Positions 8,505 through 14,239 of a DNA stretch of 55,059 bases are shown piece after piece. A model generated the notes under the pieces. That model ran no database searches. It was not told where the DNA came from and was given only the letters and a program-made list of their open reading frames with translations. The first letter of the stretch is position 1; the number at the start of each line of letters is the position of its first letter. A program made the position numbers and the translations under genes. Source of the DNA: a virus (lineage: Duplodnaviria > Caudoviricetes); the IMG/VR virus record IMGVR_UViG_3300032322_000635, positions 1 through 55,059 of that record; one strand, 5' to 3'.

Positions 8505-8689
8505 GGTACGTATCCGACATTATCAGTGCTGTAAAAGCGCGTCAGGCGGAGATTGAAAAGTCGTTAGCAAGTGGCAACGCTGCTAATTATGATTCTTATC
8601 AACGCTTGGTCGGAGAGTATGCAGGCTTATCAACTGCGATAGATATTATTAACAACCTTCTAAAAGAAGAGGAAGACAAAGAACTATGA
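8501..8689 (+). CDS. Small helical head-module protein
   Basis: ORF track; coupled overlaps on both sides; YQRLVGEYAGL motif. Confidence 0.7.
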   Translation: MRYVSDIISAVKARQAEIEKSLASGNAANYDSYQRLVGEYAGLSTAIDIINNLLKEEEDKEL

Positions 8690-9108
8690 GTAACAATCCA
8701 GTAGCTGGTAGTACGGCTGATTTACAGGATGCTTTTCCTGTTGTAGACCCTGGTGCAGTTCCTTTAGGCGCAAGAGTACTTGTACAAATGCGTTTACCAA
8801 AAAAAAGAATGACCTCATCGGGAATTATTCTCGCTGCAGAAACAGTGGATACAGAGAAAGCGCAAAATCCTGTCGGCAAAGTAGTAGCCATCGGACCATT
8901 AGCGTTTAAAAAACGCGACACAATGGAATCATGGCCAGAAGGTTCATGGGTAGAAGTGGGCGATTTCGTCCGCGTACCACGTTGGACTGGAGACAGATGG
9001 GAAATCCCAGTTAGCAAAGATGACGTAGTGCAGTTCATGCTTATGAACGACCATGAAATTATTGCTAAATTAACAAGCGATCCACTAGAAATGAGGGCAT
9101 TTGTATGA
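8686..9108 (+). CDS. groES: GroES/Cpn10-like co-chaperonin
   Basis: PLGARVLV, mobile loop TSSGIIL, GKVVAIGP, VEVGDFV, C-terminal MNDHEIIA. Confidence 0.85.
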   Translation: MSNNPVAGSTADLQDAFPVVDPGAVPLGARVLVQMRLPKKRMTSSGIILAAETVDTEKAQNPVGKVVAIGPLAFKKRDTMESWPEGSWVEVGDFVRVPRWTGDRWEIPVSKDDVVQFMLMNDHEIIAKLTSDPLEMRAFV

Positions 9109-11285: not shown

Positions 11286-12200
11286 ATGGCAGCTCCAATG
11301 CGTAGTACGGACTTCCGAAGTATCGTTGAACCTATCCTTAACGAATGCTTCGACGGAGTCTATGATCAACGTACCGACGAATGGTCACGTGTTTTCCGTG
11401 AACAAGAAGGTATACCAAGAAATTACCACGAAGAACCAGTTCTTTATGGTTTCGGTGCAGCACCACAACTACCTGACGGTACACCAGTAACGTACCAACA
11501 AGGTGGCGTGCTCTTCTTAAAACGCTATGTATACAAAGTATACGGTTTAGCGTTTGCTTTAACGAAAGTTTTAGTTGAAGACGGTGACCACATCAGAATC
11601 GGTCAAGTTTATGCTAGACATTTAGCACAATCATTGATTGAAACAAAAGAAACATTATCTGCAAACGTTCTTAACGTTGCATTCAATAACGCTTACCCAG
11701 GTGGTGACGGTGTTGCTTTAAACAGCGCATCACACCCAATCGTAAACGGTACTGCAAGCAACTTATTAGCAACTGCAGCTAACTTATCACAAACATCACT
11801 TGAACAAATGTTAATTCAAATCAGACAAGCTGTTGACAACAACGGCAAGAAGATTCGTTTAGTTCCAAGACAACTCGTAGTTGCTCCTGGTAACATTTTC
11901 CAAGCTGAAGTATTGCTTAAATCTGTTTTAAGATCAGGCACTGCTGACAACGATGTCAACCCAATTAAATCAATTGGCTTGCTCGATGAAGGTGCTGCAG
12001 TTCTTTCACGTTTAACATCTGCTACAGCATGGTGGGTTCAAACTGATGCTCCTGAAGGCATGAAGCTTCTCATGAGACGTAAGTTAGAAAAAACTATGGA
12101 AGGCGACTTCGAAACAGACTCAATGCGTTACAAAGCAACAGAGCGTTACGATGTGGGCTTCACCGACTGGCGTGCAATGTACGGCACACCTGGCGTGTAA
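11286..12200 (+). CDS. Major capsid protein
   Basis: 304 aa; strongly biased codon use; GFGAAP, YGLAFALTK, PRQLVVAP, EGDFETDSMRYKATERY, DWRAMYGTPG; followed by a hairpin. Confidence 0.9.
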   Translation: MAAPMRSTDFRSIVEPILNECFDGVYDQRTDEWSRVFREQEGIPRNYHEEPVLYGFGAAPQLPDGTPVTYQQGGVLFLKRYVYKVYGLAFALTKVLVEDGDHIRIGQVYARHLAQSLIETKETLSANVLNVAFNNAYPGGDGVALNSASHPIVNGTASNLLATAANLSQTSLEQMLIQIRQAVDNNGKKIRLVPRQLVVAPGNIFQAEVLLKSVLRSGTADNDVNPIKSIGLLDEGAAVLSRLTSATAWWVQTDAPEGMKLLMRRKLEKTMEGDFETDSMRYKATERYDVGFTDWRAMYGTPGV

Positions 12201-12213
12201 TAAAACTTGGTGC

Positions 12214-12241
12214 GGGGGAGAGCAATCTCCCTCCATCATTT
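12214..12241 (+). terminator. GC-rich hairpin after MCP (possible weak terminator or processing stem)
   Basis: GGGGGAGA-GCAA-TCTCCCTC, GNRA loop, only a short T tail. Confidence 0.55.
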
Positions 12242-12246
12242 AGGTT

Positions 12247-12317
12247 CTAGGGAAATACTGCTTATCTCGACTGCCCTAGCAGACGTTATAGAGACGATAT
12301 AAGCTATATGCTATAAC
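12247..12317 (+). ncRNA. Candidate structured RNA (double pseudoknot) in the 5' leader of the gene at 12335
   Basis: CTAGGG/CCCTAG, GCTTATCTC/GATATAAGC and GTTATAG/CTATAAC pairings interleave; three GAC junction triplets. Confidence 0.55.
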
Positions 12318-12334
12318 ATGAAAAGGAATTAATA

Positions 12335-12919
12335 ATGGCACAAACAACCTTTAGCGGCCCAGTCAAATCTTTAAATGGATTTATTGGTGGCACAGCAACA
12401 AGTCCAATTGCAGTAACAACTGCACAAAACATTAACTCATCATACGGTACAACATCTGCAACAACAGGTGATACACGTTTGGTGTATGACAGATTAACAT
12501 TCACAAGCACAGGTTCAGGCGAAACATACAGAGCTTTCTCTGTAGTAACAGGCGCAGGCGGTGCTACAGGCGGTACAATTAACGGCGCTCACATCTCAAT
12601 GTCGGTGACAGGTAGTGGTACTATTTCAGGTGCAGGTAACGCATTACGCGCTACTTTAGGTTTAGGTGCATCAACAAACGCAGGCGGTACATTATCAGCA
12701 TTACAAGTTGATTCTGATATTTCAAGTACAGCAACTGTTCCTGCTACAGCTTCATTCATTCGCATCACTAACAGCAACACAGGTACAATTTCTAATTTAT
12801 TTAATTTACCTGATGCAATGGTTCAAGCTATTGGTGGTACAAGCACAACACCTACACAAAAAATCAGATTTGTAGATTCAGCAGGTACAGCTTATTTCTT
12901 ATACGCTGTTGAGGCTTAA
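12335..12919 (+). CDS. Probable virion structural protein (head fibre/decoration)
   Basis: N-terminal MAQTTFSGPVKS; Thr/Gly/Ser-rich beta-type body; AAGGA RBS. Confidence 0.65.
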   Translation: MAQTTFSGPVKSLNGFIGGTATSPIAVTTAQNINSSYGTTSATTGDTRLVYDRLTFTSTGSGETYRAFSVVTGAGGATGGTINGAHISMSVTGSGTISGAGNALRATLGLGASTNAGGTLSALQVDSDISSTATVPATASFIRITNSNTGTISNLFNLPDAMVQAIGGTSTTPTQKIRFVDSAGTAYFLYAVEA

Positions 12920-13092
12920 TGGAAATTACGAAAGAATTTCTACTTTCTGAAATTAAACGCCTTGAAGGCGAACGTAACCAAGCGTCAAGTTTTGTTACAG
13001 CGGCTCAAGGAGCAATTGATGCTTACACAGCATTAGTTGAGAGAATAGACACACAAACCGACCAACAAGGAGAAAATAATGGGTCAATTTAA
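12919..13092 (+). CDS. Small coiled-coil protein (57 aa, MEITKEFLLSEIKRL...)
   Basis: Manual translation; TAATG coupling with the upstream stop. Confidence 0.6.
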   Translation: MEITKEFLLSEIKRLEGERNQASSFVTAAQGAIDAYTALVERIDTQTDQQGENNGSI

Positions 13093-14239
13093 ACCGATGG
13101 TAAAAATGGAGACTACAGAACCTTCAGTAATTTTAAAACTGAAAAAAGGCGGTTCAGTAGCTCACAAGAAAATGAAAGATGGTGGTGGTTGTTCTGACCA
13201 TAAACCAATGAAAAAAATGATGGATGGTGGCGTTATGGAAGCTTTAGCAGCTCAACCAGCTTTAGTTGGCAAACCTGCTGGCCCAGTTGGCGCTGTATCA
13301 AGACCAAAAAAACCATCAATGGCAGCACGTCGTATGGCCATGATGAGAAAAGGTAAGCGCCCATTTAAAGAAGGTGGCGAGTCAAAAGCTGTACACACAG
13401 CTGAGATGAAGAAGATTAATAAAGTCGAAGGTGAATTAAAATCTCACGAAGGCAAACCAGCTTCTAAAGCTCATAAAGGTTATGCTAACGGCGGCATTAT
13501 TAAATCTACATCAGGCAAATCAACAATCAACACAGCAGAACACACTACTAAGACTAGTGGCAAAACTGGTGACGTTAAGTATGGCAATGGTGGCGGTTAT
13601 AAAACTGGCGGCGTTGTTTTAGGTAACGGCGGTGGTTACAAAACTGGTGGTGTTGCTCTTGGTAATGCAGGTGGTTACAAAAAAGGCGGCAGCTCAAAAA
13701 AAGCGTATGCTAACGGTGGTTCAGTGCAAAATGAAGGCAAAGCCGTTAGTATGCCACAAGGAAATAAAAAGCCTTCAAGCCCTGTAAGTATCAGTAAACT
13801 TTCAGGCACTTTTAAAAATGGTGGCAACGTATCGTCTAAAGCGTTACAAGCTATGTTTAAAAAGGAAAATGCTCCAGCTTTAAAATCTGCCAAAAAAGAC
13901 TCTAATGAAGTTTATAGCGTCTATGCTGGCAAAAAAAAAGATAAGCATTTTGTAGGTGGTGGTCATGCTGAAGGTGATGCTTCAGATAATGTAAGTGACT
14001 TAGCTTATGAAGCTGTTATGAAAGCCGAGAAATCTGGTAAAAAAACCATGATTGATCCTAAAAAAGGCTCAGTAACAGAATCAGAAAGAGAAGTTGTTCG
14101 CAAAACTACGCCAGCTGATAAAGAATATCCGTCAGGAATGACTGATAAACAGATAGATGACTTTTTAAGGCAAGATCTAATGAGAAGGCTTTATGAGCGT
14201 CATATCGATAAAAAAAATGGCGGTAAAGTAGGCAAGTAA
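13079..14239 (+). CDS. Basic Lys/Gly-rich protein built from ~12 xKxGG/xAxGG motifs
   Basis: LKKGG, MKDGG, MMDGG, FKEGG, YANGG x2, YKTGG x2, YKKGG, FKNGG, FVGGG, KKNGG; AAGGAG RBS. Confidence 0.75.
   Translation: MGQFKPMVKMETTEPSVILKLKKGGSVAHKKMKDGGGCSDHKPMKKMMDGGVMEALAAQPALVGKPAGPVGAVSRPKKPSMAARRMAMMRKGKRPFKEGGESKAVHTAEMKKINKVEGELKSHEGKPASKAHKGYANGGIIKSTSGKSTINTAEHTTKTSGKTGDVKYGNGGGYKTGGVVLGNGGGYKTGGVALGNAGGYKKGGSSKKAYANGGSVQNEGKAVSMPQGNKKPSSPVSISKLSGTFKNGGNVSSKALQAMFKKENAPALKSAKKDSNEVYSVYAGKKKDKHFVGGGHAEGDASDNVSDLAYEAVMKAEKSGKKTMIDPKKGSVTESEREVVRKTTPADKEYPSGMTDKQIDDFLRQDLMRRLYERHIDKKNGGKVGK

Follow-up and report, generated by a model that had tools for sequence, protein, structure and literature searches.

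The genome described here (IMG/VR record IMGVR_UViG_3300032322_000635; Duplodnaviria, Caudoviricetes) is a complete virus genome with direct terminal repeats, and its 55,059 nucleotides (nt), positions 1 to 55,059 of the record, form the window to which all coordinates below refer. In the 134-nt spacer between the major capsid protein (MCP) gene and the gene for a 194-amino-acid (aa) protein lies a compact RNA element of ∼73 nt (12247-12319; one copy in the genome), for which sequence comparison establishes the structure, the strand, the conservation, a fixed position relative to the ribosome-binding site (RBS), and an exclusive link to the downstream gene family. This element is probably a structured 5′ leader in the mRNA of a fibre-like gene, acting in cis on the initiation of translation.

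Architecture and covariation of the element

As read from the comparative data, the RNA is built on a three-way junction (Table 1). The long-range helix B (9-10 base pairs, bp) closes the junction, and hairpin D (3 bp) projects from it. In the first pseudoknot (helix A), the 6-nt loop of hairpin D captures the 5′-most strand, and in the second (helix C, the third arm), the 6-nt loop of a small hairpin further on, E, is paired with a strand from the junction. While all of the helices change in sequence, the unpaired junction purines (A, AC, and AGA) are constant; stems that are fully turned over around fixed junction purines typically indicate a specific tertiary fold or a binding partner. The distance from A5′ to C3′ is 59-77 nt across the family. 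Read from the sequence, the strand order is A5′ B5′ A3′ C5′ B3′ C3′, which is the interleaved (ABACBC) order of a kissing-hairpin topology, with all three helices covarying.

The comparative samples were drawn from IMG/VR. A scan with the capsid protein yielded 80 loci that were kept (protein 93-99% identical), and a scan with the downstream protein yielded 80 further loci and 79 usable upstream regions, including that of this genome. The element is present in 78 of these 79 regions upstream of homologous genes, in 53 distinct versions. In a structure-blind alignment (plain MAFFT, 46 distinct elements), with slid pairing partners as controls, 87% of the helix B cells are paired (30-44% when slid), 8 of 9 pairs show double-sided changes, and the covariation score is 0.947, as against at most 0.168. 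A covariance model (R1) that knew only helices A and C gave an alignment, A4, of 44 rows, in which A, B, and C together are 94% paired (at most 39% slid) with double-sided changes at 20 of 20 pairs; with helix D included, the 44-row covariance-model alignment is 95% paired (at most 38% slid), with double-sided changes at 21 of 24 pairs. Because A4 was fitted to A and C, a second model (R2; 84 rows) was built that knew only B, D, and E. R2 misaligned hairpin E outside its seed subfamily and its alignment is poor around E in many rows, and its use was therefore confined to testing A and C, against which it is biased; even so, 87.6% of the A and C cells are paired (21-53% slid) and 9 of 11 pairs have double-sided changes. 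The five core pairs of helix A are 99.5% paired on A4, each with double-sided changes, and 90.8% paired on the R2 alignment, where helix C has 83.8% of its cells paired and double-sided changes at 6 of 6 pairs. Three loci whose elements are visible by eye (L044, L153, and L158) went undetected by R1, and one R1 match (L142:2114-2177; 24 bits, E 0.004), ∼2 kb 3′ of the true element and without the junction motif, was set aside as probably due to chance.

An anchored parse, with the junction pattern and helix tests as its criteria, then provided 132 distinct elements from 183 instances. Within this set, C5′ occurs as 25 distinct 6-mers, each of which is matched by its complement. Helix D emerged from a mutual-information scan, in which the bases flanking A3′ pair with each other (C-N-G with C-N′-G); all 132 elements have a Watson-Crick middle pair (UA 65, AU 49, CG 16, GC 2; on A4, UA 36, AU 3, CG 3), and in L044 the outer C-G pair has become U-A (GAU/AAC), a compensating change. 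The three pairs of helix E are formed in 129, 129, and 119 of the 132 elements, as CUC/GAG, CUU/AAG, or GUG/CAC, and as AUG/CAU in this genome. Since the bases flanking A3′ and C3′ are paired, A3′ and C3′ are the 6-nt loops of two small hairpins. The same scan returned no pairing between the first codons and the element. Covariation thus backs five helices (A, B, C, D, and E). An outer G-C pair in a longer, five-position form of helix D (G-C, A·A, C-G, N-N′, G-C) was dropped, as its G pairs with the C of AGAC.

An earlier note, made from this sequence alone, had proposed three interleaved helices after the capsid gene, punctuated by three GAC triplets. The interleaving holds, as does the pairing of CTAGGG (12247-12252) with CCCTAG (12274-12279), which is correct in its coordinates and at 6 of 6 positions, and the 8 of 9 pairs claimed between GCTTATCTC (12260-12268) and GATATAAGC (12296-12304) are all there. 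The third proposed helix, GTTATAG (12285-12291) with CTATAAC (12311-12317), is complementary at 7 of 7 positions, but its seventh pair (G12285-C12317) is kept in only 23 of 132 elements and was rejected; C12317 pairs instead with G12310, in helix E, in 129 of 132. Likewise, the GAC triplets do occur at 12269, 12282, and 12293, but they are partly paired, in helices D and B, and are not equivalent junction motifs. With C12317 in helix E and the GACs partly paired, the element therefore runs to 12319. The short inner hairpin that the note had suspected (TGC/GCA) proved to be the covarying helix D. In the regions upstream of homologous genes, where it had proposed to look for covariation, all of the helices covary, and its description of a genuine, conserved double-pseudoknot RNA stands.

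The pairing of the first and third GAC was suggested by a contig from an RNA library (run X2), which bridges 11787-12363 unbroken, from the capsid gene through the element to the start of the downstream gene, in a library where DNA carry-over is possible. The contig differs from this genome by 12260G>A matched by 12304C>T and by 12269G>A matched by 12295C>T, both of them compensating, and its 12266C>A repairs the helix B mismatch. Of the four runs compared, the other three have no coverage past ∼12245, and X2 has only a 39-nt piece (12626-12664) past 12363; these gaps carry no weight here. The second of these paired changes suggested that the G of the first GAC (G12269) pairs with the C of the third (C12295), and four IMG/VR pattern scans were made on that account, in which the counts are pattern matches that also pass three helix tests. 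The two complementary combinations pass often (G..C, 99 of 119; A..T, 85 of 114; both among the matches listed), G..T passes in 25 of 119 (among the matches listed), and A..C in 8 of 50 (complete scan). These frequencies show that G12269-C12295 is a real pair, the innermost of helix B, covarying between G-C and A-U. The outer pair of helix D is formed by the C of the first triplet with the G of the second.

Across the helix cells there are 3187 Watson-Crick pairs, 81 G·U, 7 A·C, and 25 others. The excess of G·U (81) over A·C (7) indicates that the folded molecule is + strand RNA, with the same sense as the downstream gene, and not a DNA cruciform or an antisense RNA. When the 134-nt spacer was shuffled 3000 times with its dinucleotides preserved, one shuffle contained an interleaved triple with helices at least as long as those observed, and 77 contained a relaxed (5/7/6) triple. 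The nested-only folding energy is ordinary (z = −0.36 for the 71 nt first described, −1.55 for the spacer), so that single-sequence energy gives the element no support; nested folding is blind to pseudoknots, however, and these z-scores are therefore uninformative here. What decides the matter is the comparative evidence. A reading without any RNA structure, in which the complementarity is due to chance or the site is a DNA-level protein site or the recombination joint of a mobile cassette, would accord with the ordinary nested energy (z = −0.36) and with the use of the post-capsid site as a swap point for different genes. It is close to refuted by the compensatory changes in all five helices over hundreds of copies, together with the G·U to A·C ratio and the single shuffle in 3000 that equals the observed triple.

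Two further features of the A strands were seen in part of the family. In elements of the CCGGG and CCAGG types (L083, L084, L143, L146, L150, L151, and others), though not in the type found in this genome, a copy of A3′ lies directly 5′ of B5′ (e.g., CCGGG-TTA-CCCGG and CCAGG-AACAC-CCTGG), so that A5′ could form a local hairpin in place of helix A, which may be a folding intermediate or an alternative state. Separately, a second A5′-like strand lies 1-2 nt 5′ of A5′ (TTAGGT, or TTGGGA in CCGGG-type elements), both in this genome (TTAGGTT, 12240-12246) and in L085-L130 and the L083 group; it changes along with A3′ (A-U to G-C at one position) and could be an alternative partner of the D loop.

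Table 1. Features of the element and of its immediate surroundings in the window (counts refer to the 132 distinct elements of the anchored parse).
Feature	Position	Strand	Remarks
Major capsid protein gene	11286..12200	+	Pfam Phage_capsid_4 9.1e-13; PHROG major head families; upstream neighbour, outside the element
GC-rich hairpin with GCAA loop, past the capsid stop	12214..12233	+	Nested fold; no T-run after it
A5′ (CTAGGG), 5′ strand of helix A	12247..12252	+	Pairs with D loop 12274-12279, 6/6
J1, variable linker	12253..12259	+	0-12 nt (mode 7) across 132 unique elements; sequence not conserved
B5′, 5′ strand of helix B (long-range)	12260..12269	+	Pairs with 12295-12304, 9/10
Portion of B5′ first described, GCTTATCTC	12260..12268	+	Against GATATAAGC at 12296-12304, 8/9; mismatch C12266/T12298
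Junction A between helices B and D	12270	+	Opposite an A in 132/132 elements, never paired; the search patterns fix it, and part of its invariance thus comes from selection
D5′ (CUG)	12271..12273	+	Pairs with D3′ CAG 12280-12282
Loop of hairpin D = A3′ (CCCTAG)	12274..12279	+	3′ strand of helix A
D3′ (CAG)	12280..12282	+	Final G is the G of the second GAC
Junction A-C-(G), helices D to C	12283..12285	+	AC in every collected element; the search patterns require AC
C5′ (UUAUAG)	12286..12291	+	Pairs with hairpin E loop 12311-12316
Junction A-G-A, helices C to B	12292..12294	+	AGAC 130/132, GGAC 1, CGAC 1
B3′, 3′ strand of helix B, including GATATAAGC	12295..12304	+	Covariation and direct pairing
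J5, variable linker	12305..12307	+	2-13 nt in the family
E5′ (AUG)	12308..12310	+	Pairs with E3′ CAU 12317-12319
Loop of hairpin E = C3′	12311..12316	+	3′ strand of helix C
E3′ (CAU), last paired bases of the element	12317..12319	+	Pairs with E5′
Shine-Dalgarno AGGAA	12324..12328	+	Ends 6 nt 5′ of the ATG at 12335; read from sequence
Downstream gene, 194 aa, protein starting MAQTTFSGPVKS	12335..12919	+	Predicted intertwined homotrimer (fibre or decoration-like)

Link to the downstream gene family and genomic setting

Comparison of loci ties the element to the family of the downstream gene and not to the capsid gene. Only 7 of the 80 capsid relatives have it (L003, L014, L015, L037, L044, L059, and L061), and these are exactly the ones with an MA.TTF.GP gene; their B and C arms differ yet stay complementary. 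In almost all of the capsid relatives, DNA similarity ends at the capsid stop codon and a different gene comes next. Setting the ratio of MCP to the downstream proteins, as suggested earlier, cannot be the general role of an element that occurs mostly in non-capsid contexts. Among the matches listed, 84 of the 99 that pass the structural tests are 5′ of an M..TTF.GP open reading frame, and most of the others are 5′ of related N-termini. The peptide at the N-terminus, M-x-x-T-T-F-x-G-P or a relative of it, is kept throughout the RNA family, and the remaining protein varies. The leader, the conserved N-terminus, and the variable fibre body make up a mobile cassette, which may help to explain the swapping of surface proteins.

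Other N-termini found behind the same RNA include MAVSTTQSIWRSGGGD.. and MGFATHLGPWLLGT.. (L311, L314, L317, L319, L329, L337, and others). Among the matches listed, the scan for the A-U version of the G12269-C12295 pair contains 20 STTQSIW-type and 10 ATHLGPW-like proteins in 85 passing, and that for the G-C version 1 and 3, respectively, in 99 passing. The post-capsid slot (12201 onward; L003-L082) is itself a swap point that holds at least six other gene types, including genes for MAQTYFGS.., MPQYSDDLFLG.., MSNLLVTRFPNG.., MLTNFPNG.., and MGNIVTNIGG.. proteins, and an Endonuclease_7 gene in L009, L017, and L032 (PF02945; E 6.8e-22 for L009:3975-4643).

The downstream protein has no match to a Pfam domain or a PHROG family. 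Its homologues number 3665 at E ≤ 1e-3 among 5700 candidates, every one of them named hypothetical, and the family has 331 representatives at 50% clustering. Modeled as a monomer, it is an extended chain almost without secondary structure (predicted local distance difference test, pLDDT, 77), whereas three copies give one intertwined body with ∼1300 contacts and a score of 0.97, as against 0.00 for the best of three controls; the three-copy runs agree in at least 89% of contacts, with a partner pLDDT of at least 95. In calibration, 20 of 30 proteins known as same-chain pairs from solved structures attained this score mark, as did 1 of 23 solved as single chains; the use here of three copies and of an alignment made for this analysis departs from that calibration. 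The best Foldseek matches are to the triple-stranded fibres of phage HylP (E ∼0.1) and to an unnamed viral protein (0.06), with no match at E ≤ 0.001 to PDB or BFVD; a sequence-profile search of PDB with the protein gave a best E of 0.32, and the atlas leads, HylP (0.80) and Phage_cement_2 (0.78), fall below the 0.9 level that counts as more than a lead. Given the weak likeness to HylP fibres, the success of the trimer model may partly reflect memory of such folds. From these models, we infer a trimeric virion protein that may be fibre-like or decoration-like.

By capsid-gene DNA, the nearest deposited genomes are those of an uncultured spring-water phage (75% identical) and the Caulobacter phage RW group (66%). 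The hairpin that the earlier note had seen upstream of the element, with a GNRA-type loop, is present (GCAA). Just 5′ of the scaffold-like and capsid genes, 8686-9108 encodes a Cpn10/GroES-like co-chaperonin (PF00166, E 4.6e-09), and relatives of this phage annotate the same co-chaperonin likewise. Positions 13079-14239 encode a 386-aa Gly/Lys-rich protein with repeated GNGGGYKTGG units and without a family match; in L030, a homologue of it directly follows the capsid gene.

Control of translation and alternative functions

The element adjoins the RBS, as the earlier note had placed it: in this genome, it ends at 12319 and the Shine-Dalgarno sequence occupies 12324-12328, and in the 132 elements, the distance from the first base of E3′ to the first ATG is 6-18 nt, most often 12. 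In 92 of the 132, the three bases of E3′ are at the same time the first three of the Shine-Dalgarno sequence (GAGGA or AAGGA). This fixed contact with the RBS, the specificity for one gene, and the invariant junction together lead us to propose control of translation initiation in cis, confined to the single downstream gene. In the fully folded state, the stacked C/E arm would hold or crowd the Shine-Dalgarno sequence and restrict the entry of the 30S subunit, and a partner that reads the invariant junction, the existence of which is likely, would stabilize that state. Since the N-terminus is co-inherited with the RNA, the preferred partner would be the unassembled product of the same gene, acting via its conserved N-terminal module, and such autogenous feedback would couple synthesis of the protein to virion assembly. 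These steps differ in likelihood: some effect of the element on translation is probable, repression by the folded state is a tentative proposal that falls somewhat short of even chances, and a protein partner of the autogenous kind is doubtful.

Several observations weigh against this account. Direct masking cannot be universal, since the Shine-Dalgarno sequence lies outside helix E, 1-4 nt past E3′, in 40 of the 132 elements, this genome (4 nt) included. Helix E has only 3 bp and, in this genome, is not stable by itself (+0.8 kcal/mol). A homologue with a 78% identical protein (L095:1400-1503) is without the element, its gene following directly on another with a plain AGGAG RBS, and the element is therefore dispensable in some contexts. 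The 132 elements were picked by pattern and helix tests, so that their "invariant" positions and 100% figures are partly so by construction, and in cross-sequence controls it was not rare for a short arm to meet a complement when G·U was tolerated (22% for A, 9.7% for C). What speaks for an autogenous partner is circumstantial, namely that the RNA and the N-terminal peptide are inherited together.

The same position of the Shine-Dalgarno sequence, within the 3′-most helix in 92 of 132 elements, would also suit an orphan riboswitch, in which a small molecule or ion would be bound in a pocket made by the junction purines and the pseudoknots, and binding would lock the C/E arm and turn translation off or on. 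Its compact span (59-77 nt from A5′ to C3′) and its pseudoknots with invariant unpaired purines are typical of preQ1-II and SAM-II riboswitches. We regard this as quite improbable, as the predicted structural homotrimer that the controlled gene encodes is linked to neither metabolism nor transport, a single gene family is controlled, the context yields no candidate ligand, and no Rfam riboswitch model matches.

The wider transcriptional setting differs among loci. A scan of 11900-12700 for terminators and sigma-70 promoters returned no terminator-like and no promoter-like site, so that the element of this genome lies within a transcript that runs on from the capsid gene. Most other contigs have the element and its gene in different surroundings, where a terminator comes first and then a promoter-like −10 motif; in L083, TTGCAA-16-TATTAT ends 8 nt 5′ of A5′, L086 and L094 have a terminator ∼20 nt upstream, and a TG-n-TATA(A/T)T-like motif is seen by eye upstream of the element in many loci. 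This arrangement would put the start of the transcript a few bases 5′ of A5′. It is here that an mRNA-stabilizing fold deserves consideration, a cap-like 5′ structure that blocks exoribonucleases: with the 5′ strand tucked into helix A, RNase E or RNase J could not start, and the abundant virion protein would have a long-lived mRNA, protected by a structure that acts like an exoribonuclease-resistant RNA (xrRNA) without being one. The −10-like motif ending ∼8-10 nt 5′ of A5′ after a terminator, away from the capsid gene, and the pairing of the 5′-most strand in helix A fit such a shield, and xrRNAs likewise have a three-way junction, two pseudoknots, and invariant junction purines. In this genome and ten loci, however, the element is inside a longer transcript behind the capsid gene, without a promoter, where a role at the 5′ end cannot hold unless the RNA is processed; moreover, the strand order is unlike that of flavivirus-type xrRNAs, Rfam gives no match, a plain 5′ hairpin would be enough against RNase E, and the steady contact with the Shine-Dalgarno sequence would be left unexplained. 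Stabilization of this kind is therefore unlikely, if less so than a riboswitch.

Where the element does stand between capsid and downstream genes, it could in principle separate their messages, as a self-cleaving ribozyme or an RNase-processing site. It has a double pseudoknot, about a dozen highly conserved bases, and a helix order resembling the hairpin-loop pseudoknot of pistol ribozymes, and it is intergenic in phages, in which small ribozymes are common. No Rfam ribozyme model matches even at E ≤ 10, though, and the element keeps a fixed distance to the Shine-Dalgarno sequence of one gene and is often at the start of a transcript and not between genes. The RNA-library contig, which is unbroken across the element, points the same way, weakly given that it is a contig with possible DNA carry-over. 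We consider cleavage or processing very improbable.

Cis control of translation initiation thus remains the preferred reading. On balance, it is unlikely that the element represents a new class of RNA in DNA phages, whether a riboswitch-like sensor that couples virion fibre synthesis to a signal or a shield. A sensor might respond to a host metabolite, a second messenger, or the unassembled N-terminus of the fibre itself, and a shield would be an xrRNA-like knotted fold that blocks nucleases, the first to be described in the mRNA of a bacteriophage. Either way, the invariant junction (A, AC, AGA) would be the functional core.

Distribution, novelty, and relation to known RNAs

Uncultured freshwater phages carry the element in abundance, with at least 184 IMG/VR copies that pass the structural tests from two of the pattern scans together. 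In bacterial and archaeal assemblies (596 billion bases), there were 27 pattern matches (∼17 are expected by chance, as an arithmetic estimate), of which 8 pass all helix tests; each of these 8 precedes an M..TTF.GP gene, and their metagenome-assembled contigs, assigned to many phyla, are probably binned phage DNA. Among deposited GenBank phage genomes (50,697), tblastn with the downstream protein gave no match, and blastn with two variants of the element gave either none or only matches with E ≥ 3 and a query coverage of no more than 52%. Rfam 15 (4227 models) has no match in the whole 55,059-bp window at gathering thresholds, and at E ≤ 10 only three weak matches in 12100-12450, none of them over 12256-12319; the nearest, to Clostridiales-2 (18.6 bits, threshold 58.6 bits), covers the upstream hairpin (12200-12255). 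ARAGORN found no tRNA or tmRNA in 12000-12500. The earlier failure to match the fold by eye to a known one is consistent with these searches.

A full-text literature search returned no description of the motif, including in the available portions of PMC10690425, PMC5737381, and 10.64898/2026.09.22.753630. The first of these describes an automatically compiled catalogue, with 8495 candidates for structured RNAs drawn from the intergenic regions of IMG/VR, so that the source is shared, as is the type of object, a covarying intergenic motif 5′ of a gene; as far as its text goes, its pipeline differs in using automated folding into nested structures, without pseudoknots or a functional reading (PMC10690425). 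The present motif, being abundant, may well be among the unnamed DNAVirus_N entries of that catalogue, of which the available main text gives no description.

Few structured control leaders are found at phage late and structural genes, and these are mostly simple, whereas five helices and a double pseudoknot are present here. The RNA is small and testable, its covariation already specifying compensatory mutants, with a new translational operator, an orphan riboswitch, and a nuclease-resistant fold among the possible outcomes.

Several known RNAs share parts of this design. HDV-like (hepatitis delta virus-like) ribozymes are nested double pseudoknots in which the P1 3′ strand comes after the P3 hairpin, with a P4 hairpin; they were rejected as a match, since here the 3′ strand of A is within the loop of hairpin D and C crosses B, and Rfam shows no match. 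Pistol ribozymes have a P1 hairpin-loop pseudoknot, helices P2 and P3, a G-U cleavage site, and ∼10 conserved bases. They were rejected likewise, as there is no Rfam match at E ≤ 10 and the stretch from B3′ to C3′, with a J5 of 2-13 nt, lacks a hairpin. Unlike pistol, the present element has two loop-strand pseudoknots that enclose a long-range helix, and neither a P3 nor the context of a G-U cleavage site, although it shares the ∼6-bp hairpin-loop pseudoknot, a similar size, and a wide occurrence in phage-rich metagenomes (for pistol, see PMC4604425).

The likeness to the xrRNAs of flaviviruses and plant viruses lies in the three-way junction, the two pseudoknots, the engaged 5′ strand, and the conserved junction bases (for xrRNAs, see PMC12397905). 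In the flavivirus type, the 5′ strand pairs with the junction, and the loop of a hairpin (P3) pairs with a downstream strand. These partners are swapped here, with the 5′ strand paired to a hairpin loop and the junction strand to a downstream loop, and the flavivirus type was rejected on this ground and for want of an Rfam match. The host also differs, being a DNA phage of bacteria, for which nuclease resistance would be hypothetical and by analogy.

Among riboswitches, preQ1-II and SAM-II/V are likewise small pseudoknotted leaders with the Shine-Dalgarno sequence in the 3′-most helix, and in the kissing-loop platform of the cobalamin riboswitch, an RBS-bearing hairpin docks its loop onto the sensing domain, much as hairpin E would here. 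The present element departs from all of these in having no Rfam match, no ligand-related gene, and a Shine-Dalgarno sequence outside the helix in 40 of 132 cases.

For the preferred reading, the relevant systems are the leaders of T4 gene 32, Escherichia coli rpsO/S15, and the alpha operon (S4), in which the gene product or a partner binds the folded leader and restrains initiation. Like them, the present element is a cis pseudoknot leader at the RBS of a single gene. The gp32 leader is also without an Rfam model, according to the available text of PMC10690425. Unlike these leaders, and with no sequence or model similarity to them, the present element is built on a three-way junction with two pseudoknots between hairpin loops and strands, and it stands before a gene for a fibre-like virion protein.

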